A stretch of DNA of 47,135 nt from contig JALWLO010000076.1 in NCBI GenBank assembly GCA_027084135.1, forward strand, positions 1 through 47,135. The letters run 5' to 3'. Shown here piece after piece: positions 4,250 through 47,135 of the stretch (position 1 is its first letter; the number at the start of each line of letters is the position of its first letter). The position numbers were made by a program, and so were the translations under genes. The notes under the pieces are model-generated. The model was not told the origin of the DNA, ran no database searches, and saw nothing but the letters and a program-made list of their open reading frames with translations. The stretch comes from Campylobacterales bacterium. Lineage in GTDB: Bacteria; Campylobacterota; Campylobacteria; Campylobacterales; QNZT01.

Positions 4250-5056
4250 ATGAAATTAGAAGATTTAGATAGTTATCTCTTGGAAGATATACAGAGTGAT
4301 GATCACCCGTCAGACTTTATCAAAAGAGAGGATTTTTATACCTTAGTACTAAGACTTCCAAATGTAAACAAAACTGTAACGATACGATCATACGCGTTTG
4401 TCATAGAGCGTGAGCTGGTGTATAGATATGACAGAAAAAACAACAGACTTGAGGATTTTGGAACGCTGAAAAACCTGCAACTCTTTTTAGAAGAGAAGGT
4501 CGAAAAGCTCATTAAAAATGTCAAACATTTTCACATGGAGATCGATAACTTAGAGGAGTCTCTCTACCAAGAAAATATAAGCGATGAGTTTATGCAAAAG
4601 TGGATAACCTATAAAAAAGATATCTCGCTGATAAGCAGACTGATGTTTCACGCCGCTATCGTGAGTGAACTCTTTATAGCCCATCTAAAGAGAGAGAAGG
4701 TAAAGTTCAACAAGCACGCATTTGATGATCTGCACGAAGAGATCTCAAGAGTACGGGATCTATCCAAAGCGGGTGTAGAAAAACTTGACAACCTCTATGA
4801 CTTTTACAGAGCTAAAGTCGATGAAAAGATGAACAAAAATGTCTACTACCTAACAATGCTATCGGGGATCTTCCTACCTCTGACACTAGCTACTGGATTT
4901 TTCGGTATGAATACTGGAGGATTACCCTACACGGATGACCCCCACGGCACACTAAAAGTGGTAGTTTTATCGTTAGTACTAGAGATCATCTTTTTCCTCC
5001 CCTTCATCCTCCAGAACTTTAAAAAGATCAAAAAGTTTAAGCGAGAGCAGGAGTAG
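4250..5056 (+). CDS. CorA-like divalent cation transporter (GMN-motif family).
   Basis: The C-terminus has two transmembrane (TM) segments carrying YLTMLSGIFLPLTLATGFFGMN, the CorA/ZntB GMN signature. The N-terminus is a soluble coiled region. Confidence 0.65.
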   Translation: MKLEDLDSYLLEDIQSDDHPSDFIKREDFYTLVLRLPNVNKTVTIRSYAFVIERELVYRYDRKNNRLEDFGTLKNLQLFLEEKVEKLIKNVKHFHMEIDNLEESLYQENISDEFMQKWITYKKDISLISRLMFHAAIVSELFIAHLKREKVKFNKHAFDDLHEEISRVRDLSKAGVEKLDNLYDFYRAKVDEKMNKNVYYLTMLSGIFLPLTLATGFFGMNTGGLPYTDDPHGTLKVVVLSLVLEIIFFLPFILQNFKKIKKFKREQE

Positions 5057-5126
5057 GTATTGCTATTATATGGACTTAACGGTTGTTATCTAGATATCAA
5101 GCAATTTCAAAGAGATTTTTGTATAA

Positions 5127-5468
5127 ATGAAGCATGAAAAAACCCTCAAAATCTTACAAAATATCATAAGCTCGTACGAAGAGTTACGCTTAACTGCCAC
5201 CAAAAACCAGCTAACCTACAAAGACAAGTACGGAGCGGTAGTGATGCTAAGAGTACGAGAGGAGGGCATCGTCGTAGCATTTGGCAGAAGTGCAAAACTA
5301 CAAGAGAAGTTCTCTATGCTACAAGGTAACGGCAAAGTAGTAAGGCACTTGACATTCCAAACCGTTGAGAAGTCGGACGAAAAACTGCTAAGAGAGCTGA
5401 TAGACGAGAGTCTCGTACTCGGTATAGAAAAGGCAGAGATGAAGAGGATGAAAGGTTGTTTCAGATGA
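5127..5468 (+). CDS. Hypothetical protein (113 aa).
   Basis: ORF only. It overlaps the next gene by 13 nt, which suggests an operon. Confidence 0.35.
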   Translation: MKHEKTLKILQNIISSYEELRLTATKNQLTYKDKYGAVVMLRVREEGIVVAFGRSAKLQEKFSMLQGNGKVVRHLTFQTVEKSDEKLLRELIDESLVLGIEKAEMKRMKGCFR

Positions 5469-6019
5469 AACAGATCCACCTCATCCGTCATGCAAAGGTA
5501 GATATAGATAGCTCTCAAAAGATAGGCTCTTCTATGCTTCAAGAGTGGGTAGAGAGGTATGACAAAGCCCCGATAAAGCGAGATATTAAGCCGCCCAAAG
5601 CGACGGTAGAGCTCGTACGAAGTGCGGATGTAGTACTAACAAGCTCACTTCGTCGCACACACGATACCGCCAAGCTTTTTGGTGTGGAGAGATTTGAGCA
5701 GAATGAGATATTTGACGAAATCCCCGTTCCAAATGTCGCCATCCCTTTTTTAAAACTTCGACCTTCGACTTGGCTTGCTCTTTTGAGAGTATTGTTGGTG
5801 TTTGGGTTTGGCAAAAATGACAGCTCATTAGACACCTCTAAAAAACGAGCCGAACAGGCAACAAAACATCTGCTCTCACTCACTAAAAACAACAACTTAG
5901 TACTAATCGGTCATGGAGGGATGAACTATCTCATAGGAGAAGAGCTTCTTAAAAACGGATGGGAGAGAGATAGCAAGCTTTCTCATCAAAATTTAGGTGT
6001 TACGAGCTACTACAAGTAA
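5456..6019 (+). CDS. Histidine-phosphatase superfamily protein (SixA/PGAM-like).
   Basis: An N-terminal HLIRHAK (RHG-like catalytic His motif) and a later LVLIGHGG motif. Confidence 0.55.
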   Translation: MFQMKQIHLIRHAKVDIDSSQKIGSSMLQEWVERYDKAPIKRDIKPPKATVELVRSADVVLTSSLRRTHDTAKLFGVERFEQNEIFDEIPVPNVAIPFLKLRPSTWLALLRVLLVFGFGKNDSSLDTSKKRAEQATKHLLSLTKNNNLVLIGHGGMNYLIGEELLKNGWERDSKLSHQNLGVTSYYK

Positions 6020-6110
6020 TGGCAGAGGGGAAGGGATTTTCCTCGCTTCGCTGCGGGGTTTCGCTTCGCTTCACCGAACACCTCTTATCGGGTTCTCATC
6101 CTTTCACTAT
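6020..6110 (-). repeat. Partial copy of the tRNA-Ser 3' end plus about 70 bp of shared flank (att-like direct repeat, copy A).
   Basis: TGGCAGAGGGGAAGGGATT is identical to the first 19 nt of the tRNA-Ser 3' end at 7009. The following about 70 bp match copy B at 6879-6975. Confidence 0.7.
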
Positions 6111-6193
6111 GGCAAGAGGTGTTAGATTATTTGAATTTGCGTCTTAGAGTATTTTATAAATTTTTTAAATCCCTTATCAAATGTTATCATTTT

Positions 6194-6526
6194 TTAACAA
6201 TTAAAAAAGTTACTAAATACTATATGGTATGCATCAAATGAGTGTTGAAAACTATCAGTTTGATTGATAAATTTAATGACATCATCATAAATATTTGCAC
6301 TTTTAACATATTTTGACAAATAAGCTACATTTGCTTTTATAACATCTGTGGACTCTTTTAGTTTATAAGAGACATAAACAAACTCATAAAGCGTTATTTC
6401 CGATATTAGTAACTTTTTTTCTACTATCGCTGTTTTTAAAATCTCTTGAGATCTCTTTTTCTGTTGTATATCATCTACATTTTTACAAAAAGCATATATC
6501 AAAACATTTGTATCAAGATATATCAT
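6194..6526 (-). CDS. vapC: PIN-domain toxin VapC.
   Basis: An MIYLDTNVLIY N-terminus with a conserved Asp. It is 110 aa and overlaps the upstream antitoxin ORF by 14 nt. Confidence 0.8.
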   Translation of the reverse strand: MIYLDTNVLIYAFCKNVDDIQQKKRSQEILKTAIVEKKLLISEITLYEFVYVSYKLKESTDVIKANVAYLSKYVKSANIYDDVIKFINQTDSFQHSFDAYHIVFSNFFNC

Positions 6527-7096: not shown

Positions 7097-7158
7097 ATAA
7101 AGTAGATTGAGAGTATATCAAATTTTATTTAATCAAGCATAAATCATACCACTTAGTA

Positions 7159-7626
7159 CTAACTACTTTTGTTTCGATATAATGTTTTTTCAAACTCCTC
7201 TTTTTCACGCTCCAAAAATTCGATGATCCTTCTTTGTATTATCTGCGTCTCTTCATCACCCTCAGAGCACTTCATAAGCCTTGAGAGCCTTTTGGTATTT
7301 ATCTTCTGAGCAAATCTCGGCTCAGCCTTTAAAATCGAATCAATATTTTTAATCAAATCATTTACATCAAGGTCATTTTTCATAATGATCTTATCAACAT
7401 ACTCTTTCACTGTTCTTATGAGTACATCTACTCTCGCCTCATCATCAGGATATATCTCTTTGGCTATCTCTTGAAGTATCTCCAACTCACACTCATCCAT
7501 ATCTCTATTTGCACCTATCATCGCAGCTAATATCTTCGCTCTAAACTCAAGTGATGAGTTGTGATAGACAAGTAGATCTCTAAAAAATACCAAAAATCTC
7601 GCCTTTAAATGCCGAAAAATATTCAC
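7159..7626 (-). CDS. Hypothetical helical protein, possibly a TerB-like domain.
   Basis: A 155-aa ORF with a D/E-rich helical repeat pattern. The family assignment is weak. Confidence 0.35.
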   Translation of the reverse strand: MNIFRHLKARFLVFFRDLLVYHNSSLEFRAKILAAMIGANRDMDECELEILQEIAKEIYPDDEARVDVLIRTVKEYVDKIIMKNDLDVNDLIKNIDSILKAEPRFAQKINTKRLSRLMKCSEGDEETQIIQRRIIEFLEREKEEFEKTLYRNKSS

Positions 7627-9521: not shown

Positions 9522-11846
<2,325 letters not shown>

Positions 11847-13172: not shown

Positions 13173-14495
13173 CTAAACCGATGTAATTTTGTTTTTCAAC
13201 TCCTCTACCTTTAGTCTAAAGTTTTCATTTTCTTCTATGAGTTGATTGATCTTTTTCATGTTATGAGAGACTGCCGTATGATCTTTCATGCCGAAGTATT
13301 CTGCAAGAGCTGGCATAGAGTTTGGGGTGAGAGTTCTAGCTAGATATATCCCTATTCTTCGTGCTTCTACGATGTTTTTATTTCTTTTTTTTGATTTGAT
13401 ATCACTCGGTCTAATTCCAAGCTCTTTTGAGATCACTTTGATGATCTCTTCAAGTGTGATGTTTTCTCGTTTTTCTCTGATATGCTCTTTCATCACATCT
13501 TTTGCAAACTCGAGCGTTATTTCACCTTGAGTCATAAGATCCGAATAGGCTTTGAGTTTGTTTAGAGCACTCTCTATCTCTCTGATATTTTCACCGAGAT
13601 TTGAGGCGATAAAGTTGATGATTTTGTTGTCTAACTTGATCTCGTTTAATTCACACTTCTTTTTGATGATATTGATTTTAGTTTCAAGTTCAGGAGGCTG
13701 GATATCGATGGTGATACCCCACTCAAATCTCGTAATGATCCTCTCCTCGAAACCGGCTATCTTTTTTGGCGGCTTGTCTGAAGTGAGTACGATCTGCTTA
13801 TTTTGGGAGTGGAGCTGGTTAAATGTGTGAAAAAACTCCTCTTGGGTCTCCTTTTTGTTTGAGAAAAATTGTACATCATCTATGAGGAGATAGTCACACT
13901 CTCTATACTTTTGACGAAACTTTTCCATCGTGTTGGATCTGAGGTGGTTGATGTACTCATTCATAAACTCTTCGCTTGTTGCGTAGATTACGATTTTATC
14001 TCTCTTTATCGCTTCATTTCCTATAGCGTGCAAAAGGTGTGTTTTTCCAAGACCGGAAAATCCATAGATAAAGTAAGGATTGTATGATTTTGTATGCGAT
14101 TCGCTTATATTTCTTGCAATGGAGTATGCTATCTGGTTAGAGTTACCGACGACAAATGAGTCAAAGGTGTAGGAAGGGTTTAGGATCGAACTCCTTTTTT
14201 TACTCTCTTTAGCTTTAGTTTGGTGTGATTGAGTAGCCGATGAGGATGGGTGTGAATAGTTTTTTGTCGTTATCTCGATTTCAATGCTATTTCCATCTCT
14301 CTCTTTAACGATGGAAGCCATCTTTTTTCGATATTTAGTACTAACCCATTTGGCAATAATTGGATTTGGTGCTATAAATAGAGCTTTGGTGCTATTTGAG
14401 TTTTTTTCATCATATTTGAGAGGCTTGATATATCTTTCATATTCATTTTTGGTTATTTCACTCTTTAAAAGCTCCAATATCTCGCTTGATGACAT
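13173..14495 (-). CDS. dnaA: Chromosomal replication initiator DnaA.
   Basis: A 440-aa ORF with the Walker A motif GLGKTHLL. Its C-terminal DNA-binding domain IV is present. Confidence 0.95.
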   Translation of the reverse strand: MSSSEILELLKSEITKNEYERYIKPLKYDEKNSNSTKALFIAPNPIIAKWVSTKYRKKMASIVKERDGNSIEIEITTKNYSHPSSSATQSHQTKAKESKKRSSILNPSYTFDSFVVGNSNQIAYSIARNISESHTKSYNPYFIYGFSGLGKTHLLHAIGNEAIKRDKIVIYATSEEFMNEYINHLRSNTMEKFRQKYRECDYLLIDDVQFFSNKKETQEEFFHTFNQLHSQNKQIVLTSDKPPKKIAGFEERIITRFEWGITIDIQPPELETKINIIKKKCELNEIKLDNKIINFIASNLGENIREIESALNKLKAYSDLMTQGEITLEFAKDVMKEHIREKRENITLEEIIKVISKELGIRPSDIKSKKRNKNIVEARRIGIYLARTLTPNSMPALAEYFGMKDHTAVSHNMKKINQLIEENENFRLKVEELKNKITSV

Positions 14496-17052: not shown

Positions 17053-17154
17053 TATCTTATTTGCGATTTTTTTGTTAGTACTAATTATTATTTAGTACTA
17101 ACTCTTATGAAAAAATATATATAATATCCTAACTACCAAGGAAAGGTAATAAAG

Positions 17155-18420
17155 ATGAAGATCATCGACTACTTTAAAGAGATCACAAAGATACCGCACT
17201 GCTCAAATGCCACTACACTTCTTAGAGATTTTCTTGTCTCCTTTGCAAAATCAAAAGGTTATAGCCTCAAAGTTGATGAAAAAGGAAATATCTTAGCCTC
17301 ATCTTCAGATCCAAAACTCTGTCTCCAAGCCCACTATGATATGGTTTGTGTCGGTAAAGCTCCGGAGATAGAAGTGGTAGAAGAGGAGGGGTGGCTTAAA
17401 GCGCAAGATAGCTCTCTTGGAGCCGATAACGGCATAGCGATAGCGATGATGATGGTGTTGATGGATGAGAGAAGGGAAGCAGAGTTTCTATTTACCAATG
17501 ATGAAGAGATCGGACTCAAGGGTGCAGAAGCCCTAAAATTTGATCTCAAATCAAAATATATGCTCAATCTCGATAGCGAAGATGAAGCCCAAGTCTATGT
17601 AGGGTGTGCAGGCGGAGTGGATATAAAGGCGACAAAAGCTTATGATACGGAGTTTAGAGAGGGTGACTTTTATGAAGTAAAAACCGAGGGGCTCAAAGGT
17701 GGACACTCTGGAGTGGATATAGATAAAGGTATCCCAAATGCTATCAAACTCTTTGCCTCTTATGTGAAAGATAAAGATATATGTATAGCTCATATCAAAG
17801 GGGGTGAGAGGCTAAACTCCATACCGGTTCATCTAAGAGCGATAGTTTGCTCCGATCAAAAGGTATCAAGCGGAGAGAATATCGATTTCAGACGATTTGA
17901 CGGTAGATTTAAGGTGATAAAAAGGAGTGATGAGATCATCTCTTTATTAAATAATTTTAAAAATGGAGTTCTTGAAGAAAACGCCGAGTTGGGTATCCCA
18001 AATAGTAGTGCAAACTTGGCTCTTATCTCTTTTGAAGAGGGCATTTTGACGATAGAGGTGAGTTTGAGAGCGATGGATAATGAAACACTCGATACTATAG
18101 CGCTTAGTACTAAAGCCTTTTTTGAGCGTTTTGGCTATAGTGTTGAGGTACATGATAGATATCCGGCATGGAATCCTAAAATAACTGATTTTGCAAAGAG
18201 GGTTGATGAGAAGATGAGAGAGGTATTTAAAAAGAGCAGTTTCAAAGCGATACATGCCGGACTTGAGTGCGGTATCATCAGTTCTATTTACCCGAATATG
18301 CAGATAGCCTCTATCGGTCCAAATATCAGATCACCCCACTCTACGAGCGAGAGAGTAGAGATAGAGTCTGTGGAAAAGACCTATCGAGTACTAAGTAAAA
18401 TAGTGGATGCGTTTAGTTGA
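17155..18420 (+). CDS. M20-family dipeptidase (PepD/aminoacyl-histidine dipeptidase-like).
   Basis: Has HYDMVCV, GADNGIAIA and FTNDEEIGLKGA metal-ligand motifs. It is 421 aa. Confidence 0.7.
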   Translation: MKIIDYFKEITKIPHCSNATTLLRDFLVSFAKSKGYSLKVDEKGNILASSSDPKLCLQAHYDMVCVGKAPEIEVVEEEGWLKAQDSSLGADNGIAIAMMMVLMDERREAEFLFTNDEEIGLKGAEALKFDLKSKYMLNLDSEDEAQVYVGCAGGVDIKATKAYDTEFREGDFYEVKTEGLKGGHSGVDIDKGIPNAIKLFASYVKDKDICIAHIKGGERLNSIPVHLRAIVCSDQKVSSGENIDFRRFDGRFKVIKRSDEIISLLNNFKNGVLEENAELGIPNSSANLALISFEEGILTIEVSLRAMDNETLDTIALSTKAFFERFGYSVEVHDRYPAWNPKITDFAKRVDEKMREVFKKSSFKAIHAGLECGIISSIYPNMQIASIGPNIRSPHSTSERVEIESVEKTYRVLSKIVDAFS

Positions 18421-19307
18421 TGATAAGATATCTTTTCGTACTAATCCTTATGATAAGCGGATGTAGCATGAAAAAGCCTATAACACTCGATAAAACCTTA
18501 AAACATAGTATGTCACAAGATATCGATCTCTACTATGAAGAGAAGGGTGAAGGTGAGCCGATGGTACTACTTCACGGCTTTGCCTCATCATCCTACTCAT
18601 TTAGATATATCATCCCCGAGCTTGCAAAATATCATAAAGTCTATGCCGTCGATCTTAAAGGATTTGGAAAATCCCCCAAACCCAAAGATGATAGATACTC
18701 CGTGTATGACCAGTATCTTTTGGTAAAGAGATTTATCCAAAAACACCATATCAAAAATCCCATACTTCTCGGACACTCGTTTGGAGGCGGAGTAGCACTG
18801 CTTTTGACGCTAGATAGTGAGATAAAACCCAAAAAGCTGATACTCATCGATGCCGCCGCATACAAACAGAGACGCCCTAAACTCCTTAGGTGGGCGATGA
18901 TCCCGTTTCTCGGTAAAGCAGCTCTCTATATGCTTCCGGCATCCTATCAGGCAAAGTCAGGCTATGAGTATGCTTTTTATAATGACAAAAAGATACCCAA
19001 AGAGGGTGTAGAAAGCGTAGCGAAAGCACTTGGAAGCAGAGGTGGAAAGTATGCCTTTGCCAAAGCAAATGAGGAGTTGATACCCGATGACATAGAGGAG
19101 ATAAGTAGTCGCTACAAAGAGATAAGCACTCCAACACTCATCATCTGGGGAGATAAAGATATAGTGATACGAAAAAGTAAAGCTTACCGCCTCCACCGTG
19201 ATATCAAAAACTCAATATTAAAAATCATCCCAAATTGCGGACATATCCCGCAAGAGGAGCAACCACAGTTAGTACTAAGATACATCAAAGAATTTCTAGG
19301 AGATTGA
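18417..19307 (+). CDS. Alpha/beta-hydrolase-fold lipoprotein.
   Basis: A lipobox LILMISGCS, an HGF oxyanion motif, a GHSFGG nucleophile elbow and a C-terminal His. Confidence 0.75.
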   Translation: MMIRYLFVLILMISGCSMKKPITLDKTLKHSMSQDIDLYYEEKGEGEPMVLLHGFASSSYSFRYIIPELAKYHKVYAVDLKGFGKSPKPKDDRYSVYDQYLLVKRFIQKHHIKNPILLGHSFGGGVALLLTLDSEIKPKKLILIDAAAYKQRRPKLLRWAMIPFLGKAALYMLPASYQAKSGYEYAFYNDKKIPKEGVESVAKALGSRGGKYAFAKANEELIPDDIEEISSRYKEISTPTLIIWGDKDIVIRKSKAYRLHRDIKNSILKIIPNCGHIPQEEQPQLVLRYIKEFLGD

Positions 19308-31794: not shown

Positions 31795-32747
31795 GGTATT
31801 TTATATTGATATTAACGGCAGTGGTACTAAACGCTAAGATCATAGACGCAAAACAGCTCTTTAATAAAAAGGTGATAGAGGTACAGGAGCAAAACATCTC
31901 CATCACAAAAAGCTACTATGCCAAGATAACTCCAGATAGCACCAAAGTAAAAACCCTCTCTCTACTCTTTAGCGGATATGTCGAAAAGCTCTACGCCGAT
32001 AAGCCCTTTATGGAGATAAAAAAGGGAGACAAGCTCTTTGATATCTACTCAGATGAGGTCTATAAACTCCTTCAAGAGCAGAGGATATCACCCGTTTCAA
32101 AACGGCTGATCGCCAAAAGATTTGAGGCTTTGCATATCGACCAAAGTGAGCTACAAAAAAGCAGAGCCGTGACCGTTTATTCGCCGTATAGCGGTGTCGT
32201 TACCAAGAAACGGATATTTGAGGGGGATTATGTACAAAAGGGCAAGATGCTCTATGAGATAGTAGATCTAAGCCAAGTTTGGGCGATAGCAAAGGTTTAT
32301 CAGAGCGATTTAACATTTATAAAAGAGGGGATGGAAGCAAGGATAGAGGTGGATGGAGTCGGTAGTTTTAAAACCAAAGTTAAGCAGATATATCCGCAAG
32401 TCGATAACCGAAAAAAGACGATAGATATCAAGTTAGTACTAAACAATCCCAACTTAAAACTATATCCAAATATGTTTGCCAAAGCCTACATCAAAACCAA
32501 AACCAAAAGAGCTTTAGTACTACCCAAAACTGCGGTACTAACCAAAGGCAAAAAGCATTTTGTCTTTTTGGATAGGGGTGAGAATTATGAGCCAAAAGAG
32601 GTGGAGGCTGTGAGGATAGATGCGAGGCGTTATGAGATAAAAAGCGGACTGAAAAAGGGTGAGAGGGTAATTGATAAGGTGATGTTTATGCTTGATAGTG
32701 ATGCTATCACCAACTCTTTGTACGATAGTGATGATGAGGATTGGTGA
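31791..32747 (+). CDS. cusB: RND efflux membrane-fusion (periplasmic adaptor) protein, CusB/CzcB-like.
   Basis: HlyD-like barrel-sandwich motifs (VTVYSPYSGVV...). The C-terminus is the acidic tail DSDDEDW. Confidence 0.75.
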   Translation: MRYFILILTAVVLNAKIIDAKQLFNKKVIEVQEQNISITKSYYAKITPDSTKVKTLSLLFSGYVEKLYADKPFMEIKKGDKLFDIYSDEVYKLLQEQRISPVSKRLIAKRFEALHIDQSELQKSRAVTVYSPYSGVVTKKRIFEGDYVQKGKMLYEIVDLSQVWAIAKVYQSDLTFIKEGMEARIEVDGVGSFKTKVKQIYPQVDNRKKTIDIKLVLNNPNLKLYPNMFAKAYIKTKTKRALVLPKTAVLTKGKKHFVFLDRGENYEPKEVEAVRIDARRYEIKSGLKKGERVIDKVMFMLDSDAITNSLYDSDDEDW

Positions 32748-35700
32748 TGGTAGAGAGGATTATCGATCTTAGTATCAAGCACCGCTTTTTAGTACTAATT
32801 ACCCTTTTTATAACACTTATCGCTTCGATCTATGCTATCAAAAAAACCTCTCTTGACGCACTGCCCGATCTCTCACCGGCACAAGTGATCATACAGATCA
32901 AGTGGGAAGGGCAATCCCCGAAACTCATAGAGGATCAGATCAGCTATCCTCTGGTCTCAAATCTTCTCTCACTGCCGGATATCTCAACCGTTAGAGCGAT
33001 GAGTAGCTTTGAAAACGGGCTTATATATGTGATATTTAAAGACGGTACCGACCTCTACAAAGCAAGAGACAGGATACTTGAAAAGCTCTCGGAACTTGCG
33101 CCGACTTTTCCAAAGAGTGCCAAAGTGACGATGGGACCCGATGCTACCGGTGTGGGATGGGCGTATGAGTATGCTTTGAAGTCTGATACAAAAAGTTTGG
33201 ATGAGCTAAGAGACCTACAAGAGTACTACTACAAATATGCCCTGCTTGGAGTGGACGGTGTGAGTGAAGTGGCGACTATCGGGGGATTTTCCAAACAGTT
33301 TGAGATAACTTTGGATCAAGATAAGATGGCACAGTACGGCGTGTCGTTGGGTCAGGTCAAAAAGGCGATCCAGAGGTCAAACAACGATAGCGGAGGACGG
33401 ATGATACTCGAAAACGGCTTTGAGCATATCATCACCGCAAAGGGATATCAAAAAGCTCTTAGTGATGTGGAAAATATCACGATAAAGAGTGACGGATACA
33501 ATATCATCAAACTCAGTGATATTGCAGATCTTACCTATTCACCAAAGAGTAGAAGAGGCGTGGCTGACCTAGACGGTGAGGGAGAGGTGGTCGGCGGTAT
33601 CGTCGTGGTTCGTTTCGGTGAAAATCCCTACAAAGTGATCAAAGCGGTCAAAGAGAAGCTCAAAAGCCTTAAAGTGGATGGGGTAGAGGTGGCTGAAACA
33701 TATGATAGAAGCTCTTTGATCGACAAGGCGATAGATACGCTAAAACATACCCTTTTGGAGGAGTCGATCATCGTCTTAGTTGTTACGGCTCTCTTTCTCT
33801 TTCACATAAGAAGCTCTCTTATCATGCTTATCACCCTGCCGATAACGGTGATGATAACATTTTTGTTGATGTATATTTTTGGTATCGGCTCAAACATCAT
33901 GAGTCTCGGCGGTATCGCTATCGCTATCGGTGCGATGGTGGATGCGACGATCGTGATGGTGGAGAATGCGCACAAATATCTAAACAGATTGCAACGAGAG
34001 GGTAGAGAGATAAGCGATAAGATGCGTTTTGAGGCGATCATTAAGAGTGCCAAACTTGTCGGCAGACCGATATTTTTCGCTTTGGTACTGGTGGTGGTCT
34101 CATTTTTACCGATCTTTGCACTTGCAGGACAGGAGGGTAAGCTCTTTACTCCACTTGCATTTACAAAGACATTTGCGATGGTAACGGGAGCACTGCTCTC
34201 TATCACCTTAGTACCGATATTGATGATCTACTTTATCAAAGGCAATATTCCCCAAGAGGAGAAAAACCCGATAAACCGCCTCTTTCAAGCTATCTACACA
34301 CCTATTTTAATGCTATCACTAAAGTTTAGATACCTTATTTTTATCGGAGTAATTGGCTTTGTACTTTTTGGCTACTACCTCTACCAAAAGCAAAATTGGG
34401 AATTTATGCCGATGATGAATGAGCAGACCTTTATGTATATGCCGGTAACACCCTATGGGATAGGGGCTGATTTCTCAAAAGAGCTTTTGCAAAAGAGCGA
34501 TAGGGTGCTTAAGAGCTTTCCGGAGGTTAAGAGCGTGTTTGGTAAGGCGGGAAGGGCAGATACCGCTACCGATCCCGCACCTTTGGCGATGATAGAGACT
34601 ATCGTTACATTTAAGCCAAAGAGCAAGTGGCGAAAGGGGATGGACTATAAAAAGCTGATGGATGAGATGGATAAAAAACTCCAAATCCCCGGACTCATCA
34701 ACTCTTGGACCTATCCCATACGAGGCAGGATAGATATGCTACTTACCGGTATCAGAACACCTCTGGGTATCAAGCTTTACGGAAGCGATCACGATCTCTT
34801 GGCGGATAAGGCTTTGGAGATAGAGAAAAAGCTCCAAGAGCTAAATGCTACCCTATCAGTTTCATCGGATAAGATAAATAGCGGTTACTACCTAAATATC
34901 GATATCGATGAGGAGAAACTAGCAAAGTATGGCATAACAAAGCAAAAGATACTAGATACTATCTCATACGGAGTTGCCGGAGCGAGGGTTTCGACCCTCT
35001 ACAAAGATATCAAGCGATACCCAGTCATCTTACGATACGACTCAACACAAAGAGGGGATATAACCGCTTTAAAAGAGTTGAGGGTTGATACACCGTTTGG
35101 ATTTTTCCCGCTAAGAGAGTTTGCGGATATTTCGTACGATGAGGGGGCGAGTGTGATAAAGAGTGAAAAGGGACTTGGAGTAAACTTCATCTACATCACA
35201 CCCAAAAACGGCGTAACCCCATCAGAGTATAAGAAAAGGGCGGAGGAGAAGCTAAAAGAGATCAAGCTTCCGGAGGGCTACTACTATGAGTGGGCGGGGC
35301 AGAGTGAGTACTTAGAGAGTGCGATGGAGAGATTGAAGGTGATTATCCCGTTAGTACTAATCGTGCTATTTGTTTTGATCTATTTGGCGTTTCATAACCT
35401 CTTTTACGCCACCATCATCTTTTTGACGCTTCCTATCGCACTTGTCGGTGGGATATACTTCATCGAGTATCTGCATATCAACCTAAGTGTAGCAGTAGTT
35501 GTGGGGTTTATCGCACTTCTTGGTGTGGCGGCGGAGACCTCTATCGTGATGCTTTTGTACCTTGATGAGGCGTACAAGGAGAGAAAAAAAGAGGAGAGTT
35601 TAACAGATATCGTCAAAAGGGGAGCGGTACTTAGGCTCAGACCGAAACTCATGACGGTATTTGCGATACTTGGAGGGTTAGTACCGATACTTTTTATAAG

Positions 35701-36661: not shown

Positions 36662-37318
36662 ATGAAAATACTTTTGCTAGAAGATGATGCCATACTCGCA
36701 GAACTTATCAGCGAATACCTCCAAAAGCTAGGACATGAAGTAGAGAGCTTTTATGACGGAGAGTCGGCACTTAAGAACATAGAGAAAAGTAGCTACGATC
36801 TGCTTTTGTTGGATCTCGGTGTGCCCTATATGGACGGCTTTGAGCTACTCTCGTATCTAAAAGAGAGCCGTATCACCACCCCATCTATCTTTATCACTTC
36901 ACTAAGCGGGGCGAAAGATTTTGAGAAGGCGTACAAGATAGGGTGCGATGACTACATCAAAAAACCGTTTGATCTCAAAGAGCTTGAAGTTCGCATCAAA
37001 AAACTAAGCAAAGAGCATAACTTGGTACTAAACGATACTGTGGTAACTGACGGACTCTTTTATGATGAAGAGAGCAAAGTGCTATATAGCGACAAAACAA
37101 GAGAACAACTACCCAAAAAAGAGGCTTTAGTACTAGAATATCTGCTAAAACATAGAGGCAGGGTAATATCTATAAAAGAGTTAGCGGCAAATATCTGGAG
37201 CTACGAAGAGACTCCCTCCAGCTCAACGGTACGAACCTATATCAAAAACCTACGGAAACTGCTGCCAGAAGGTGCCATCACAACCCTCAAAGGGATAGGA
37301 TATAAATTTGAGGAGTGA
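36662..37318 (+). CDS. OmpR-family response regulator (CusR/CopR-like).
   Basis: An MKILLLEDD receiver domain (D...D...K) plus a winged-helix C-terminus. The ATG at 36662 was preferred over the ORF-track start at 36617. Confidence 0.85.
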   Translation: MKILLLEDDAILAELISEYLQKLGHEVESFYDGESALKNIEKSSYDLLLLDLGVPYMDGFELLSYLKESRITTPSIFITSLSGAKDFEKAYKIGCDDYIKKPFDLKELEVRIKKLSKEHNLVLNDTVVTDGLFYDEESKVLYSDKTREQLPKKEALVLEYLLKHRGRVISIKELAANIWSYEETPSSSTVRTYIKNLRKLLPEGAITTLKGIGYKFEE

Positions 37319-38417
37319 GGAGAGAGGGGCACTTGTAAGGTTTGTGCTATTTTACTTTGGCTCTACATTTATTTTGCTGTCGATGATATTTGTGCTAATC
37401 TATAAATTTGAAACAAAGAGTATCGAGGAGCTAACCAAGGCAAATATGAAAAACTTTAGCTTCACACTCTCTTCAAAGATCATAAACGCCCAGATGCAAG
37501 GGCAAAATCTTGACTTTCACTCTCTTAGTACTAATATATACAAATTTGCCCTATATGGCAAAGAGGGCAAAAAAGTCTTTGGAGATGAGACAAATGAAAA
37601 GGGTTTTACGCTCGAAGATAGAAGTCCGTTGGGACATCTTGGTATCTGGAAGATAGTTGTAGAGGATGATACATTTAGTACTAAACTTAGTGGGTTAGCA
37701 AAGAGGCTGTTTCTCGGCTTTTTTCTCTCATATCTGCTCATAACAGTGGTGGGATATTACCTCATCAAACTCTTTATGCGACCGATAAGAGAAGCAAGAG
37801 AGAGGATAGATAACTTCATCAAAGATACCACCCATGAGCTAAATACACCCATCACCGCCATCATGATGTGTGCCAACAAAGAGAGTCTCAAAGATGAAAA
37901 AAATATCGATAGGCTCTACCTTAGTACTAAACGGGTGAGCGAGTTGTATAAAGACTTAACTTACCTCTTTTTGGAAGATAGAGAGCATAAAAAGATAGAG
38001 AAGTTTCGTGCAAAAGATGAGATAGAGGGGCTGATGGGATACTTTGAGCTTTTAGCAAAAAAGAGGGAGATAACCATCAAAAAGAGCTTAGATGATAGTC
38101 AAGTGAGGATGGATAGAGAGGATTTTAAACGGCTTGTCTCAAACCTACTCTCAAATGCCGTAAAGTACAACAAACAGCGAGGCGAGATAGAGATATCGTT
38201 GCAAAAGGGCACACTAAAGGTAAGAGATACGGGGATAGGGTTTGATGAGAAGGAGAGCTCACAACTCTTTAAACGCTACTACCGTGCCACCTCTCAAAGC
38301 GGAGGATTCGGCATGGGACTTAGCATCGTGCAAAAGATATGCGATGAGTATGGGTTTGAGATAAGCGTCAAGTCAAAAAGGGGCGAGGGGAGTGAGTTTG
38401 TTGTTGATTTTAGATAG
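37308..38417 (+). CDS. Sensor histidine kinase (CusS-like).
   Basis: Two TM segments, an H-box THELNTPITAI, an N-box LLSNAVKYN, and G1/G2 boxes DTGIGF and GGFGMGLSIV. Confidence 0.85.
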   Translation: MRSEERGALVRFVLFYFGSTFILLSMIFVLIYKFETKSIEELTKANMKNFSFTLSSKIINAQMQGQNLDFHSLSTNIYKFALYGKEGKKVFGDETNEKGFTLEDRSPLGHLGIWKIVVEDDTFSTKLSGLAKRLFLGFFLSYLLITVVGYYLIKLFMRPIREARERIDNFIKDTTHELNTPITAIMMCANKESLKDEKNIDRLYLSTKRVSELYKDLTYLFLEDREHKKIEKFRAKDEIEGLMGYFELLAKKREITIKKSLDDSQVRMDREDFKRLVSNLLSNAVKYNKQRGEIEISLQKGTLKVRDTGIGFDEKESSQLFKRYYRATSQSGGFGMGLSIVQKICDEYGFEISVKSKRGEGSEFVVDFR

Positions 38418-41563: not shown

Positions 41564-41671
41564 AATATGGGCACCTATAATTATAAGAGGTGCCCATACG
41601 GGAAAATTGTTAAAACTACTACGATACTTACCGATGATTTTGGCTATATTGAGAAGATTTAAGAGGTAGTA

Positions 41672-41965
41672 CTAAACTCTATTTGTCCAATAGTTGGGTT
41701 TACGATGCAAATTGGCAATAGCCACTATTAAAATCATATCTTTTCTATTTTGATAAATTACAGCGTAAGGGAAGGTTTTAACCAAACAGCGTCGTGTATT
41801 TGTTGAGATATGAGCCCAAGCTGACGGGTAAGATTTTATAAGTTCTATTGCATTATAAACTTCTTGAACAAATCGATATCCCAAACCGGCTTGCTGATAT
41901 TCATAATATTCAAAAGCTTCATCTAGTTCTTGCTGAGCCGGTTCTAAAAATTGGGCTTTTGTCAT
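41672..41965 (-). CDS. ParE/RelE-family type II toxin.
   Basis: A 97-aa ORF whose C-terminus reads FPYAVIYQNRKDMILIVAIANLHRKP. It sits 9 nt downstream of the antitoxin paralog. Confidence 0.65.
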   Translation of the reverse strand: MTKAQFLEPAQQELDEAFEYYEYQQAGLGYRFVQEVYNAIELIKSYPSAWAHISTNTRRCLVKTFPYAVIYQNRKDMILIVAIANLHRKPNYWTNRV

Positions 41966-42193: not shown

Positions 42194-42396
42194 ACTTTGC
42201 TCCTTGATTTTGATTTAGGTTAATTATATCATAAAACATCATCCCAAACTTAGTACTAACAAAATGTGGTACTAAACATAGTAAACTCTCATAGAGCAGT
42301 GATAAAATGGCAGGAAAAGCGAAGGGATTAAAAATTATTTAAAAATATTTTGATATTATTCAACTAATGAACTAATACTACCCAAAGGAGGCTGAG

Positions 42397-42524: not shown

Positions 42525-43835
42525 ATGTCGAGTGTTAAAAAAGTTTTAGAACTCTCTATCCCTGTTGTTATAAATCTACTGCTTGTCACAATGATAGGTT
42601 TTACCGATCTATATGTAGTCTCAAAGTTCGGTGATGATGCGGTTAGTGGTGTAGGTATAGTACTAAATATTTGGGAGATACTCCAAGCACTTACCATCGC
42701 TCTCTCTTCAGGTGCATCCGTGCTTTTGACTCGTTATGTCGGTAAAAAGAGTTACAAAAAAGGCTCATTGGTTATCTCAACACTGCTTATCACGGGGCTT
42801 GTTTCGACTCTCTTTGTGATTGCTATTTTTGCTGTACTGCCCTCTATGGTTCTCTCTTTTATGGGTGCGGGTAGTGAGGTAAGAAGCTACGCCGTTGAGT
42901 ATGGATATATCCTTTTGCTTGATATACCTTTTATCGTGATCAATGTCGTGATAGATAGTGCACTCCATAGTTACAGCAATAGCAAACTTCCTATGTATCT
43001 ATCGGCAGTCGCGGCAGTGATAAATATCATCCTTGACTTTGGATTGGGATTTGGTATGTGGGGATTGCCTAAGATGGGGGTGTTTGGGGTAGCGTTATCG
43101 ACGGTTATCAGCTTCGGGATCATTGCGATGATACATCTTTACATATTTTTTGGCTCAAAGATGCCATATCCTCCGGCATTTCGCTTTAGTTACAGTATCT
43201 TAAAACGAGCGTTGAAAGTATCGCTACCGGAGGTCGGTTCACGACTTGTAAATAGAGTCTCAAACCTCATTTTTTCGACGGCGGTCATCTCATTGGGGAG
43301 TAGTTATTATGCTGCATTTACCATCGCCATGAAGTTGATGGCATTTGGTTACATGCCGTTGATCGCCTTTGCCGAAAGCGGTGCTATACTTCTAGGACAA
43401 GCGATAGGTGCAAAGCGGTATGATGAGGGTAAAAGGTATGTGGATATCGTTGCGATGATCAACCTGCTTATCATGGTGTTTATCGTAACACTATTTGTTA
43501 TATTTGCAGGTGATATAGCGGCGATGTTTAGTACTAACGCCCTAACTCAGAAACTAACGGTTTTGTCGATAGTAGTCCTTGCGGTTACACTTTTTTCAAT
43601 GGCTATCGATATGACTTACACCTTTGCCCTAAACGGGGCGGGGTTGTCAAAGAGAACATTTAAGATAAATATCATTACGCTTTGGTTGCTTCGTATCATA
43701 CCATCGCTTGTAGCGATATATTTCTTGCGATCTTATGAGTTAGTACTAATGGCATATTTGTTGCAAATATCAATAACTGCTTACTTGATGTACAGAGAGT
43801 TTAGAAAAGGAGAGTGGAGGTTTGTGAAAGTGTAA
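42525..43835 (+). CDS. MATE-family multidrug/Na+ efflux transporter (NorM-like).
   Basis: A 436-aa ORF with 12 TM helices in two 6-TM bundles. It shows MatE repeat motifs. Confidence 0.85.
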   Translation: MSSVKKVLELSIPVVINLLLVTMIGFTDLYVVSKFGDDAVSGVGIVLNIWEILQALTIALSSGASVLLTRYVGKKSYKKGSLVISTLLITGLVSTLFVIAIFAVLPSMVLSFMGAGSEVRSYAVEYGYILLLDIPFIVINVVIDSALHSYSNSKLPMYLSAVAAVINIILDFGLGFGMWGLPKMGVFGVALSTVISFGIIAMIHLYIFFGSKMPYPPAFRFSYSILKRALKVSLPEVGSRLVNRVSNLIFSTAVISLGSSYYAAFTIAMKLMAFGYMPLIAFAESGAILLGQAIGAKRYDEGKRYVDIVAMINLLIMVFIVTLFVIFAGDIAAMFSTNALTQKLTVLSIVVLAVTLFSMAIDMTYTFALNGAGLSKRTFKINIITLWLLRIIPSLVAIYFLRSYELVLMAYLLQISITAYLMYREFRKGEWRFVKV

Positions 43836-43884: not shown

Positions 43885-45657
43885 TTGATGACAGAAGCAT
43901 TAAGATATTTGATCATCCCAACTTTTTTATCGACTCAGTTATTTGGAGCGACTCCGACCAACGATGCTATAGAGTACCTAAATCAACTCAGAGAAAAAGC
44001 GGGGCTTATTAAACTCCAATATGATGATGAGCTAAGCAAAATGGCGACAAGCCACTCTAAGTATCAAGTGAGTGAAAATATATTTTCTCACTATGAGAGC
44101 AACAAAAACAACCCGTACTATACAGGACATAGTTGGGAAGATAGAGCCTCTTATATAGGGTATCCATACAGCTCTATCGGAGAAAATATAAGTTGGGGAA
44201 ATATTTCGGATAAGGACTCAATCGACGGACTCTTTACAGCTATCTATCACCGTTTAAATTTTTTGACATTTAAAATGGATAGAGTAGGCTACGGCTATGA
44301 TACGATGAGTGACGGAAGAAGGATCTATACTTACGATATGGCTGCAAAAAGACCTACAACCGTGGAAGAGGTAGAAAATAAAAACCCAAGTTTTGTTTTG
44401 TGGCCACCCAAAGATTTCCAAGAGGCACAACCTGCATTTTTTAACAACGAATCCCCTACTCCTCTTTATGAAGAGTGTGCTCCAGGCGGAAGTTCGGGCA
44501 ATCCGATAAGTATAAAGTTCAATCTCGCTAAAAGCGGGGAGATAGTGTATGACTCCTTTGAGTTTAGGGATAGTAACGGAAACCCTTTAGAGATAAAAAT
44601 GCTAGATCACGGTCTCCATGCGAAAGAGTTTGCATTTTTCCCTATAAAAAGACTTGATTGGGATACTACTTATAGTGCCCTCTTTAAGTATAAAGAGGAT
44701 GGAGAGCCAAAAGAGTTAAGCTGGAGCTTTAAGACCAAAAAGACTCCTTATGCGCTCTTAGTACTAAGTGCTACCGATAAGGTTTATAAGGTAGCAAGAG
44801 GTGCAACATATACGCTCTATATCCCTCCAAAAAGCTGTCAAGAGCCTGCAGATGGTAGCATCTCTTATGATCCTACAAAGATAGAAGTGCTCAATGATGA
44901 GTCAAAATCTGATAGAGATATACATGATATAAAGGTTATAGGTAGAGTAGGTAACAGCTTTAGTACTAACATTGATGACAAAACATATAGCTTTGAGATA
45001 TTTACAAATGAAGTAAAAACACTTACCTTTAGCGACATCACAGCAACCTCCGTGACACTGCACTGGGAGCATGAAAATGGACCAAACGATACCGGCTATA
45101 AGATATTTAGAAACGGTAAACTTATATATACTGCTTCAAAAGATGAGAGAGAGTACACCGATAGCGGCTTAGACCCAAATACTACATATAAGTATACTGT
45201 AAAAGTTACGGATGATAGGGTGCAGAGTTATGCTAGAGGAGAGTTTGGAAACATCAACTTAACGCCTGACTATAAGATACCTGACGATGCATACTTTATA
45301 GATATCAGAAACGCTTGGGAGAGAGAGGTATATGGCGGATATCCAAAGGGTAGCAAATTAGTTACCTATGAGTTTAGAGAGAGACATGCGGCAGATGAAC
45401 CTGAAGATAGATCCAAAAGACGCCTAAATCCAAACTTTATAAAAGAGATCGAAGAGTTGGTCAACGGTAACAAAGATGCTCATATCATCCTCATCTGTGC
45501 TACGGGAGGAAGAACGGGTGAGTATGGTGACTTCTCTAAGGATAGCGCTGCTAAGCTACTTTCACTAAACGGGTTTAGCTATGTAGAGCATATCATGGGA
45601 GGTATCTTTGGTGAAAACGGTTGGTTAGAAAACGACCTTCCTTGGATAAAATTATAA
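43885..45657 (+). CDS. Secreted multidomain protein with a CAP (SCP/PR-1) domain, a fibronectin-III-like domain and a C-terminal rhodanese-like domain.
   Basis: Has a signal peptide. The CAP motifs are HSKYQ...GHSWEDRASY...GENISWG. An FN3-like segment (TLTFSDITATSVTLHWEH...YKYTVKV) follows. The C-terminal rhodanese loop reads ILICATGGRTGE. Confidence 0.55.
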   Translation: MMTEALRYLIIPTFLSTQLFGATPTNDAIEYLNQLREKAGLIKLQYDDELSKMATSHSKYQVSENIFSHYESNKNNPYYTGHSWEDRASYIGYPYSSIGENISWGNISDKDSIDGLFTAIYHRLNFLTFKMDRVGYGYDTMSDGRRIYTYDMAAKRPTTVEEVENKNPSFVLWPPKDFQEAQPAFFNNESPTPLYEECAPGGSSGNPISIKFNLAKSGEIVYDSFEFRDSNGNPLEIKMLDHGLHAKEFAFFPIKRLDWDTTYSALFKYKEDGEPKELSWSFKTKKTPYALLVLSATDKVYKVARGATYTLYIPPKSCQEPADGSISYDPTKIEVLNDESKSDRDIHDIKVIGRVGNSFSTNIDDKTYSFEIFTNEVKTLTFSDITATSVTLHWEHENGPNDTGYKIFRNGKLIYTASKDEREYTDSGLDPNTTYKYTVKVTDDRVQSYARGEFGNINLTPDYKIPDDAYFIDIRNAWEREVYGGYPKGSKLVTYEFRERHAADEPEDRSKRRLNPNFIKEIEELVNGNKDAHIILICATGGRTGEYGDFSKDSAAKLLSLNGFSYVEHIMGGIFGENGWLENDLPWIKL

Positions 45658-45738
45658 TTTTTTTCTATAATTATAATATAGCCGTTTAAATACATTTTTA
45701 TAAAATAATGTTATAATACTCCAAAAAAGGAGGCGGCT

Positions 45739-46515
45739 ATGAAAAGAGCACTCTTGGTACTAATGCTATTGTCGTTAAATCTGTTCGGTTATCAAAAGTG
45801 GGTTGCGGTCGTTACAAATGATGTAGCATATAGTGATCAAAAGGTGATATCTACCATCTATCTCGATGAGTTTAAGGATCAGATAAAAGAGAATTTACGA
45901 AAAAATCACTACATATCGCAGATAAAGTATATGAGCGGTAGATGGGTGGGCATCGTCTCCTATCCAAAAGGGGCAAAAAAGAGACAGGTAGTGACTTTTT
46001 CTAAGCGGCTAAGTCCATTTTTTAAGAGTGTCAAGCAGAAGATAAAAGCGGGATATGAACTAAAAGATCTAGAGTATGGCAACGGCAGGTGGGTAGGTAT
46101 CTTTGATAAAAGCAGTAGCAAAAAGGAGCAAGAGCTCTTTAACAGAAGCAAGTGGAAAAATATCGCTAACGTTATAAAGGATGAGTGGAGGAGAGGATTT
46201 GGTTTGGTTGATATACAAAGGGGAGCGTCAAAATGGGTAGCACTATTTACCAAACCAAGCTACAAAGATCAAGAGCTCTACACCAGAGATGAGTATGCCG
46301 AAATCATCGATAAGATCGTAGAAGCCTCTAAGAGAGGGTATCTGCTGACAAAGCTTGAGTACGGACTTGGCGACTGGATAGCGGTACTAAGCAAAAAGGC
46401 TCCCTATAAAAGCGTGCAGATCATCAAAGCCGATAGTATAGAGAGGTTTATAGAGATGCTTGAGAGATACAAGAGAAAAGGACTCTATGTCGTTGATCTT
46501 GCGATAGGGTTTTGA
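45739..46515 (+). CDS. Secreted tandem-repeat protein with four copies of a unit of about 47 aa.
   Basis: Has a signal peptide. The unit Y-x-L-x-DLEYG-x-GRWVGIF-x-K...QEL...KRG repeats at about residues 60, 107, 155 and 202. Confidence 0.5.
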   Translation: MKRALLVLMLLSLNLFGYQKWVAVVTNDVAYSDQKVISTIYLDEFKDQIKENLRKNHYISQIKYMSGRWVGIVSYPKGAKKRQVVTFSKRLSPFFKSVKQKIKAGYELKDLEYGNGRWVGIFDKSSSKKEQELFNRSKWKNIANVIKDEWRRGFGLVDIQRGASKWVALFTKPSYKDQELYTRDEYAEIIDKIVEASKRGYLLTKLEYGLGDWIAVLSKKAPYKSVQIIKADSIERFIEMLERYKRKGLYVVDLAIGF

Positions 46516-46615
46516 GATAACGACGAAAAATACTATAAAAAGATTCCTTTTCTAACGCCTTTGACACTTTATTGTCATAGTAAATATATGATTTTTCATA
46601 AAGTAATCGAAGGTA

Positions 46616-47135
46616 GTTTCAAATCCCATAGGGAGTTAGTACTAAACCCCGTAAGCTTCTGGGTTCTTCTCTTTACCCATTTGTTTCAAATCCCATAGGG
46701 AGTTAGTACTAAACGTAGCCACTATCTCTACTCCTAACTCTTTAGCTCTCTGTTTCAAATCCCATAGGGAGTTAGTACTAAACGCTTCCTAAACTACCTC
46801 CAATACTTTTAAACACACGTTTCAAATCCCATAGGGAGTTAGTACTAAACAAACTCGTTGGGCTTCAAGCACAAGCACCAAATGTTTCAAATCCCATAGG
46901 GAGTTAGTACTAAACTGCGTCCATTGCATTATTTCCGTCGGCACTTGCTAGTTTCAAATCCCATAGGGAGTTAGTACTAAACCCTTGCTCTACTGTTGCG
47001 CCCTCTATTTTTGTTTGTTTCAAATCCCATAGGGAGTTAGTACTAAACATACTTTAAATGTATCAGCCATCGCTACAACCTCTTGTTTCAAATCCCATAG
47101 GGAGTTAGTACTAAACGGTAAGCGTCCTTTTTGAA
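46616..47135. CRISPR. CRISPR array with 8 identical 32-bp repeats (GTTTCAAATCCCATAGGGAGTTAGTACTAAAC) and spacers of 33-37 bp. It continues past the window end.
   Basis: The repeats lie at 46616, 46683, 46752, 46819, 46884, 46951, 47017 and 47085. The seven complete spacers are unique. No cas genes lie inside the window. Confidence 0.9.

Follow-up and report, generated by a model that had tools for sequence, protein, structure and literature searches.

Why a single 10-bp palindrome should recur throughout a bacterial chromosome is the question raised by a 47,135-nucleotide stretch from a Campylobacterales bacterium (GenBank assembly GCA_027084135.1, contig JALWLO010000076.1, positions 1 to 47,135; this whole stretch is hereafter called the window). 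The palindrome, TTAGTACTAA, is its own reverse complement, consists of 80% A+T, and is the commonest 10-mer of any kind in the window, where 36 exact copies were counted: 28 dispersed through genes and spacers, and 8 in the repeats of a clustered regularly interspaced short palindromic repeats (CRISPR) array, one per repeat. The way in which these copies sit in the sequence shows that a directional process acting at the level of DNA, and not selection on proteins or codons, imposed TTAGTACTAA on any sequence tolerating it.

Abundance and Form of the Palindrome

An initial annotation of the window, made from its letters alone, had described about 28 exact copies outside the array, one more in each CRISPR repeat, and a strong over-representation, all of which the counts and null models bore out. 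One hundred dinucleotide-preserving shuffles of the window gave a mean of 0.09 copies (maximum 1), the Markov-2 and Markov-3 expectations were 0.06 and 0.09, and the other 10-nt palindromes with the same base composition (n = 159) averaged 0.075 copies (maximum 2), TTAGTACTAA standing about 370-fold above these composition-matched palindromes. Some details needed correction. All 28 positions listed in that annotation exist, with several coordinates displaced by 1 to 9 nt (18100 for 18104, 26023 for 26014, 43537 for 43528, and 35346 for 35351); the sites matching at nine of ten bases, put at about 10, number 13; and of its two close pairs, the one at 17075 and 17092 is real, whereas the second member of the one at 42250 is merely a partial copy, TGGTACTAA.

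The form of the motif emerges from nested counts. GTAC occurs 148 times in the window, against about 165 expected by our own composition-based estimate, AGTACT 45 times, the eight-base core TAGTACTA 38 times and the complete palindrome 28 times; with 45 copies of AGTACT against 38 of TAGTACTA, nearly all AGTACT of the window sit within the palindrome. The 10-mer has a density of 0.60 per kb and the core one of 0.82 per kb, or about one copy per 1.2 to 1.7 kb. No sequence is shared in the 30 nt on each side of the copies, and the three positions adjoining the motif on either side (-3 to -1 and +1 to +3) lie close to background. One-off variants (n = 13) depart from the consensus at position 1 or 10 in nine cases and at position 3 in the remaining four, with none at positions 4 to 9. 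The element is a free-standing 10-bp palindrome, of which the inner eight bases, TAGTACTA, are the strictest part.

These properties decide against a family of simpler explanations, namely that the copies belong to a mobile element, a miniature inverted-repeat transposable element (MITE) or another longer repeat, to solo CRISPR repeats, to a segmental duplication or to an assembly artefact. The presence of the motif in every CRISPR repeat is what would recommend such an origin. However, the flanks are dissimilar, none of the dispersed copies carries the remainder of the CRISPR repeat, copies within conserved genes, gyrB for example, keep the frame and involve no indels, and two independent data sets yielded assemblies of the window sequence at 99.99% identity. 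The descent of all copies from one recently duplicated segment and the spread of a mobile or duplicated element by recombination, both entertained in the initial annotation, are excluded by the unrelated flanks and, for the latter, also by the indel-free copies in conserved genes; the whole family can be regarded as refuted.

Imposition on Coding Sequences

Thirty-three of the 38 TAGTACTA cores (87%) are genic, 20 of them read as (L/V/I)-V-L and 13 as S-T-K/N, and none falls in the frame in which TAG would be a stop, in agreement with the earlier observation that genic copies are confined to the two frames avoiding the internal TAG. The other five cores (13%) lie outside genes, in a window of which 13% is non-coding, and two of these five provide the TAG stop codon of a minus-strand gene. 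The spelling of the tripeptides is far from what codon usage predicts: Leu-Val-Leu is written TTA-GTA-CTA in 15 of the 22 such tripeptides of the window (68%, against 0.9% predicted), and Ser-Thr-Lys/Asn is written AGT-ACT-AA in 13 of 21 (5.6% predicted). Both kinds of peptide are themselves about threefold commoner than amino-acid frequencies predict, by our own arithmetic from residue counts.

Comparison with orthologues showed how the copies were accommodated. The LVLK site of ThyX was re-spelled synonymously, and the sites in DnaA and the hydrolase, like the S-T-K site of ThyX, arose by amino-acid replacements at positions that are variable among relatives. GyrB is 770 amino acids long in all ten lineages compared, its motif copies being in frame and without indels. 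The highly conserved BipA, DnaN and FlgE contain no copies, and the most are found in the weakly conserved FliK (four), outer-membrane efflux protein (three) and histidine kinase (three). A preference for L-V-L or S-T-K, exerted through selection on peptides or codon usage, would fit the fact that every genic copy encodes one of two peptide types. Against it stand the unrelatedness of the two peptides, their encoding on either strand, the occurrence of intergenic copies in proportion to non-coding DNA, the excess of one codon combination given above, and the relatives that encode the same peptides with other codons; this explanation, too, is refuted, and its remaining likelihood is negligible. 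The DNA-level process converted about two thirds of the compatible tripeptides, forced replacements at variable protein positions, supplied stop codons and probably overwrote the unconstrained half of the CRISPR repeat.

The exact copies read as L-V-L lie in the CorA-like gene (4343..4352), the histidine-phosphatase gene (5897..5906, kept in the sister species L083), the alpha/beta-hydrolase gene (19269..19278, with ETL or ELL in relatives) and the minus-strand thyX (19916..19925, where relatives have the same peptide spelled CTA GTC CTC or TTA GTC TTG). Three more are found in the outer-membrane efflux gene (30631..30640, 30904..30913 and 31297..31306), one in the membrane-fusion protein gene (32433..32442), two in the AcrB-family gene (32789..32798 and 35351..35360), and one each in the MatE gene (43740..43749) and the CAP/fn3 gene (44758..44767). 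The S-T-K reading occurs in minus-strand genes at 9787..9796 in gyrB (kept in L083; SSS, EPR or SNT in relatives), 14335..14344 in dnaA (K, Q, N or I instead of S in relatives), 20014..20023 in thyX (TLE or TLD in relatives), 23381..23390 in the flgE-like gene, and 25516..25525 and 26014..26023 in fliK. It also occurs at 18104..18113 in a variable protein region of the M20 peptidase gene, and at 37675..37684 and 37921..37930 in the histidine-kinase gene, in which a further copy (37525..37534) reads S-T-N, as do those at 43528..43537 in the MatE gene and 44960..44969 in the CAP/fn3 gene. Outside genes, the copies at 17075..17084 and 17092..17101 form the close pair, 7 nt apart, and the copy at 42250..42259, upstream of the MatE gene, is followed 7 nt downstream by the partial copy mentioned above. 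The copy at 7153..7162 lies at the end of the minus-strand open reading frame (ORF) 7159-7626, of which CTA at 7159-7161 is the TAG stop, and was counted as intergenic.

The near-copies follow the same pattern. Those differing at an outer base are TTAGTACTAG in the CorA-like gene (4973..4982), twice in fliK (25643..25652 and 25660..25669) and in the response-regulator gene (37127..37136); GTAGTACTAA at 5630..5639 (V-V-L, kept in L083) and at 41666..41675, where CTA at 41672-41674 supplies the TAG stop codon for the ParE-like ORF 41672-41965 on the minus strand and the site was counted as intergenic; TTAGTACTAC in gyrB (11552..11561) and in the membrane-fusion protein gene (32514..32523); and ATAGTACTAA in the MatE gene (42657..42666; I-V-L). 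The gyrB site encodes V-V-L-T and is spelled GTA GTA CTA in the window and in L083, against GTT GTT/GTA TTG/TTA in eight relatives. Mismatches at position 3 are represented by TTCGTACTAA at 1094..1103 and 18435..18444 and by TTGGTACTAA at 37022..37031 and 45754..45763. A core variant, CTAGTACTAG, in which TAGTACTA is intact and both outer bases are changed, lies in the HSP20 gene (1487..1496) and reads L-V-L.

The CRISPR Repeat

The array, of type I-B and on the minus strand, occupies positions 46616..47135 and runs off the end of the window; its eight repeats of GTTTCAAATCCCATAGGGAGTTAGTACTAAAC contain the palindrome at 46636, 46703, 46772, 46839, 46904, 46971, 47037 and 47105. On the probable transcribed strand the repeat is GTTTAGTACTAAC-TCCCTATGGGATTTGAAAC, with the palindrome in the 5' half. 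In the longer contig L001 (16865-20282 and 20433-21320), in which cas1 follows the array, at least 49 identical repeats are present, and spacers 10-13 recur as spacers 16-19. Homologous I-B loci in L252 (11140-11170) and in Nitratifractor salsuginis (L253, 11139-15277) have repeats that keep the 3' 19 nt, TCCCTATGGGATTTGAAA(C/T), whereas the 5' halves are unrelated (GTTTAGTACTAAC in the window, TTTTAGATCGTG in L252 and AATCATGAAGCAG in N. salsuginis). As only these 3' 19 nt are conserved between homologous arrays, the palindrome occupies the unconstrained half of the repeat. The chance of its having originated there at random is about 1e-6 by our own estimate, and the likeliest account, judged from the sequences, is that the same genome-wide process would have rewritten the repeat and that homogenisation then spread the change to at least 49 units. 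A search of the repeat against Rfam matched no family, and three spacers compared with viral contigs gave no matches.

Distribution among Related Lineages

Whether related genomes share the motif, a question put by the initial annotation, received a divided answer. Orthologues were compared through the dnaA-dnaN-gyrB region, the relatives not being syntenic around bipA. In the sister species L083 (GCA_054011135.1), TTAGTACTAA is present, with eight cores in 8.7 kb; its GyrB and that of the window are 92% identical in protein, 81.4% in nucleotide sequence and 54.5% at third codon positions. All four alignable window sites are conserved in L083, with diverged flanks, and four extra sites in L083 are each 3 to 5 substitutions away from the window sequence, which in this alignment points to an ongoing gain of TTAGTACTAA. 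The motif is absent from all 80 bipA-anchored loci of related species, among them L017, despite 92% BipA protein and 79.5% nucleotide identity to the window, and from the gyrB-anchored relatives other than L083. In GCA_054011335.1 and GCA_054006055.1 no hyper-abundant palindrome was detected.

A screen of all palindromic 8- and 10-mers in the Campylobacterota loci examined (Bonferroni threshold about 5e-7) gave three outliers. The palindrome TATCATGATA, often extended to CTATCATGATAG, was found in 10 copies in 14.7 kb of L246 (GCA_024762875.1, 1-14699; 0.11 expected, p = 5e-17) and in 18 copies in 22.3 kb of L250 (GCA_054041865.1, 1-22313; 0.14 expected, p = 7e-32), which represent two species with 80% gyrB identity. 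Some TATCATGATA sites are common to both species and others are lineage-specific gains from sequences differing at up to six or more positions, so far as the alignments indicate the same dynamic of gain as that of TTAGTACTAA; several copies overlap start or stop codons. The third outlier, TTCATGAA, has 10 copies in 13.9 kb of L008 (QNZT01000184, 'Sulfurospirillum sp. MAG 6', 1-13901; 0.33 expected, p = 3e-12), often as CTTCATGAAG, and four copies in L006 (0.35 expected). Six of the L008 copies are internal L-H-E codons and four may be start codons (ATGAA). Such coincidence of CATG-containing palindromes with start codons accounts for part of their abundance, not for the conserved flanks. A possible fourth lineage-specific palindrome is suggested by TAGATCTA, with 12 copies in 18.7 kb of L251 (JGI 3300045637 Ga0486129_000185, 1-18721) against 2.2 expected; its p value of 4e-6 falls short of multiple-test correction, and this locus holds 12 of the 15 copies of the whole near clade. 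About 60 loci from more distant Campylobacterota gave no signal of a hyper-abundant palindrome. Between TTAGTACTAA and TATCATGATA none of the eight inner positions agrees, and the 4-nt centres of the palindromes are GTAC, CATG and GATC. Read from these loci, the phenomenon appears to recur within one clade, its sequence changing abruptly between lineages.

Conservation of the alignable sites, despite the low third-position identity, could also be explained if TTAGTACTAA were the binding site of a dimeric chromosomal protein maintained by functional selection, acting in nucleoid organisation, as a bidirectional Chi-like hotspot or in self-marking for defence. The perfect dyad symmetry would suit a homodimer, and for the highly iterated palindrome HIP1 of cyanobacteria a role in chromosome structure or a Chi-like function has been suggested (PMC5861425). 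This alternative is nevertheless improbable: the copies are spaced no differently from random, asymmetry and strand skew characterise known Chi sites, the shared sites may be parallel gains, and a conserved architectural protein is difficult to square with a full exchange of the sequence between sister lineages.

Other palindromes were considered as further alternates, namely TGGTACCA (L247) and TATCGATA (L248/L249), and rejected as too weak and partly due to Gly-Thr codons. TATCGATA is mildly enriched in the near clade (window, L008, L248, L249, L084 and L017), with 45 copies against 14.6 (Markov-2) or 27.9 (Markov-3) expected, seven of them in the window, and may be either a weak clade-wide second palindrome or an effect of composition. 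Avoidance of the palindrome centre was also observed. AGTACT has no copies in L084 (1-15644) and L085 (1-14997), close relatives without the palindrome, where 2.4 to 5 would be expected in each; pooled over 20 relatives, 30 copies against 41.5 (Markov-1) are too weak a deficit to claim ScaI-like restriction. GTAC is strongly avoided in L010 (1-14161; none in 14.2 kb) and L026 (1-14001; two in 14 kb), which suggests GTAC-specific restriction in other Campylobacterales.

Scans for motif pairs were extended to metagenomes and viral contigs. The metagenome matches listed were mostly unrelated AT-rich, probably eukaryotic contigs with TAGTACTA inside longer repeats, and were discarded; L139, L177, L198 and other JAABU* contigs, very AT-rich and up to 885 kb long, hold many TAGTACTA within longer dispersed repeats (...GGTACTAAGTATT...), which are unrelated to the bacterial motif and probably degenerate eukaryote repeats. 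Among viral contigs only local clusters of iteron or operator type were found. The phage contig L095 (IMGVR_UViG_3300000228_000003, 1-14505), with tail-fibre genes according to PHROGs, has seven dispersed TAGTACTA against 2.25 expected (p = 0.008, not significant).

Proposed Mechanism and Its Alternatives

The reading tentatively favoured, at a level of belief somewhat short of probable, is that TTAGTACTAA is a lineage-specific highly iterated palindrome, a HIP1-like self-tag linked to a methyltransferase and amplified by biased uptake or recombination. The palindrome would be the recognition site of a lineage-specific DNA methyltransferase, complemented by a reader, and the methylation core would likely be the N6-methyladenine (m6A) site GTAC or the ScaI-type site AGTACT. 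The initial annotation had pointed to the latter through a ScaI-like restriction-modification system, and GTAC is an equally good candidate. The methylated tag would mark DNA as self for natural transformation or recombination, and tag-bearing alleles, being preferentially taken up and recombined, would be driven toward saturation by molecular drive. An exchange of the methyltransferase would then lead to an abrupt change of palindrome between sister lineages. Methyltransferase repertoires turn over fast in this group, which would explain such abrupt switching.

Several published observations provide components of this mechanism. In Helicobacter pylori, GTAC, CATG and GATC are subject to m6A methylation of Type IIP (PMC3936762). 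In cyanobacteria, methylated HIP1 raises transformation more than 100-fold (bioRxiv 10.1101/2024.09.10.611283), HIP1 abundance co-varies with DNA-uptake genes (bioRxiv 10.64898/2026.06.24.733823), and HIP1 and its alternates are each accompanied by a cognate methyltransferase, according to Elhai (PMC4390886).

A number of points weigh against the proposed self-tag. No methyltransferase, restriction enzyme or competence gene was found in the window or in the motif-bearing loci read, and a regular-expression scan of all motif-bearing loci for methyltransferase catalytic motifs found nothing. The motif-bearing genome covered amounts to about 56 kb, the 47 kb window and 8.7 kb of L083. There is no intergenic excess of sites, which a drive opposed by protein constraint might predict. 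The spacing between copies is neither regular nor clustered (coefficient of variation 1.02), without detectable periodicity over the 47 kb, whereas the spacing of HIP1 is reported to be periodic (PMC5861425). The overlap of the three palindrome cores with the m6A sites of Helicobacter could be due to chance, with a probability of about 0.07 by our estimate. Finally, with few peptides compatible with the motif and most of those already converted, the window and L083 could have acquired their common sites in parallel, and the conservation of these sites is then no proof of selection.

The substitutions by which sites were gained bear on another explanation, in which the palindrome would be a functionless by-product of biased mismatch repair, that is, of a very-short-patch-like or methyl-directed activity tied to a methyltransferase, as in Elhai's model of HIP. 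The restriction of one-off variants largely to the outer bases, the switching of palindromes between lineages, and the invasion of any tolerant sequence, including the CRISPR repeat, regardless of coding frame, are all compatible with it, and a drive by deamination repair predicts a genome-wide depletion of the one-mismatch variants TTAGTATTAA and TTAATACTAA. However, the sequences that gave rise to new sites in L083 and L250 departed from the respective palindrome at 3 to 6 positions across the 10-mer, for which T:G repair at a single position is insufficient, and the UDG-superfamily gene at 3529-4218 is merely a weak match of a common kind. A by-product of repair therefore appears distinctly unlikely. 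A drive through uptake or recombination, as in the self-tag proposed here, would favour each step toward the consensus, and multi-substitution gains fit it better than they fit single-mismatch repair.

Comparison with Known Systems

The likeness to HIP1 and to the uptake sequences of Neisseria and Pasteurellaceae, first remarked on in the initial annotation, stands as regards density, spread over coding and non-coding DNA, and use of stop-free frames; identity with a classical uptake sequence was argued against by the later results. HIP1 (GCGATCGC) and TTAGTACTAA are both short perfect palindromes, free-standing, tens- to hundreds-fold over-represented in coding and non-coding DNA. The one-off variants of both concentrate at the outermost bases (PMC4390886 for HIP1), both are embedded in a CRISPR repeat, HIP1 in that of Synechocystis CRISPR1 (PMC6604393), and some cyanobacterial lineages carry an alternate palindrome (PMC4390886), as do the sister lineages of the bacterium studied here. 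Unlike HIP1, which is GC-rich, 8 nt long and cyanobacterial, TTAGTACTAA is AT-rich, 10 nt long and from Campylobacterota, with a cognate methyltransferase that is putative; and whereas HIP1 extends across nearly a whole phylum, TTAGTACTAA is limited to a species pair, with rapid turnover of the palindrome between sister lineages.

The DNA uptake sequences (DUS) of Neisseriaceae and the uptake signal sequences (USS) of Pasteurellaceae share with TTAGTACTAA a density of about one per kb, genic copies in permissive frames, an effect on peptides and a preference for weakly conserved proteins, and the gain of TTAGTACTAA by point substitutions is compatible with molecular drive. It could thus be a classical uptake sequence, an unmodified 10-mer read by a competence receptor, as ComP reads the Neisseria DUS, and amplified by biased uptake and recombination. 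Natural competence is common in Campylobacterota (PMC10046745), and the observed one copy per 1.2 to 1.7 kb fits DUS and USS. In contrast to TTAGTACTAA, though, DUS and USS are asymmetric, enriched in intergenic DNA, placed as inverted pairs at terminators, and family-wide with dialects of 1 to 3 nt. The palindrome has no excess at intergenic or terminator positions and a single close direct pair; only two species-level lineages have it, and in sister lineages its place is taken entirely by palindromes that differ at all eight inner positions. Moreover, the one uptake specificity so far documented for this order requires methylation. The classical form is therefore unlikely, and the comparison as analysed favours a HIP-type, methylation-linked tag over it.

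That documented specificity belongs to Campylobacter jejuni, which takes up only DNA methylated at the palindrome RAATTY (CtsM), the m6A mark defining DNA for uptake (PMC10046745). RAATTY comes from the same bacterial order, is palindromic and AT-rich, and illustrates how the site of a methyltransferase could turn into a self-tag. It differs from TTAGTACTAA, for which methylation is putative, in being short, degenerate and frequent by chance; we know of no report of its hyper-abundance. Chi sites, like TTAGTACTAA, are over-represented short oligomers, and they function in DNA transactions. They are, however, less dense, measure 5 to 8 nt and are asymmetric with a strand skew, whereas a palindrome carries no orientation information and, being identical on both strands, can show no strand skew. 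Repetitive extragenic palindromes (REP), bacterial interspersed mosaic elements (BIME) and MITE-type repeats are likewise dispersed, numerous and of dyad symmetry; they exceed 20 nt, are intergenic and share flanking structure, in contrast to the 10 nt shared here.

In the literature searched, TAGTACTA, TTAGTACTAA and TATCATGATA appeared only as primers and unrelated oligonucleotides and not as genomic motifs, and no paper on uptake or iterated sequences in Campylobacterota was found. A HIP-like phenomenon is known in kind; what is new is the sequence, the phylum and the lineage-specific alternates.

Genomic Context

The window is core chromosome, comprising the dnaA-dnaN-gyrB origin region, ruvC, thyX, flagellar hook genes and bipA, together with an operon for resistance-nodulation-division (RND) efflux, a two-component system, several toxin-antitoxin pairs and the type I-B CRISPR array. 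With the dnaA-dnaN-gyrB cluster present (11847-14495 and flanks), the window probably spans the region of the replication origin; the palindrome is absent from the intergenic regions flanking dnaA. The UDG-superfamily protein encoded at 3529-4218 (Pfam E = 3.7e-8) adjoins an uncharacterised 263-amino-acid ORF at 2728-3519. Repair genes of this kind are common, the match is weak, and a link to the palindrome would be conjectural.

Biological Implications

Hyper-abundant short motifs are rare and informative on DNA uptake, recombination and methylation, and the function of HIP1 has been debated for 30 years. The lineages described here constitute a natural experiment, in which sister lineages, with a core-gene identity of about 80%, have the same palindrome, a different one or none. 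The writer and reader genes should be identifiable by relating palindrome type to gene content over a few dozen existing metagenome-assembled genomes, and nascent and decaying sites are datable by orthologue comparison. The case shows how far such a drive can go in overriding codon usage, changing proteins and even rewriting a CRISPR repeat. In practical terms, the tags are species-diagnostic k-mers for binning, and transforming DNA intended for these organisms would probably need tags built in or methylated.

A broader and more doubtful possibility concerns the whole clade, which consists of uncultured, probably hydrothermal Campylobacterales. Its lineages might use exchangeable 'genomic barcodes', each species-level lineage being saturated with its own methylated, AT-rich palindrome around a 4-nt m6A core (GTAC, CATG or GATC) and transformation accepting only DNA that bears that barcode. 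If true, HIP or uptake-tag systems would for the first time be known beyond cyanobacteria, Neisseriaceae and Pasteurellaceae, and a switch of tag could for the first time be traced between sister lineages. Acquisition of a new methyltransferase would then re-tag the genome and raise an instant barrier to gene flow, a mechanism of speciation written in the sequence itself.

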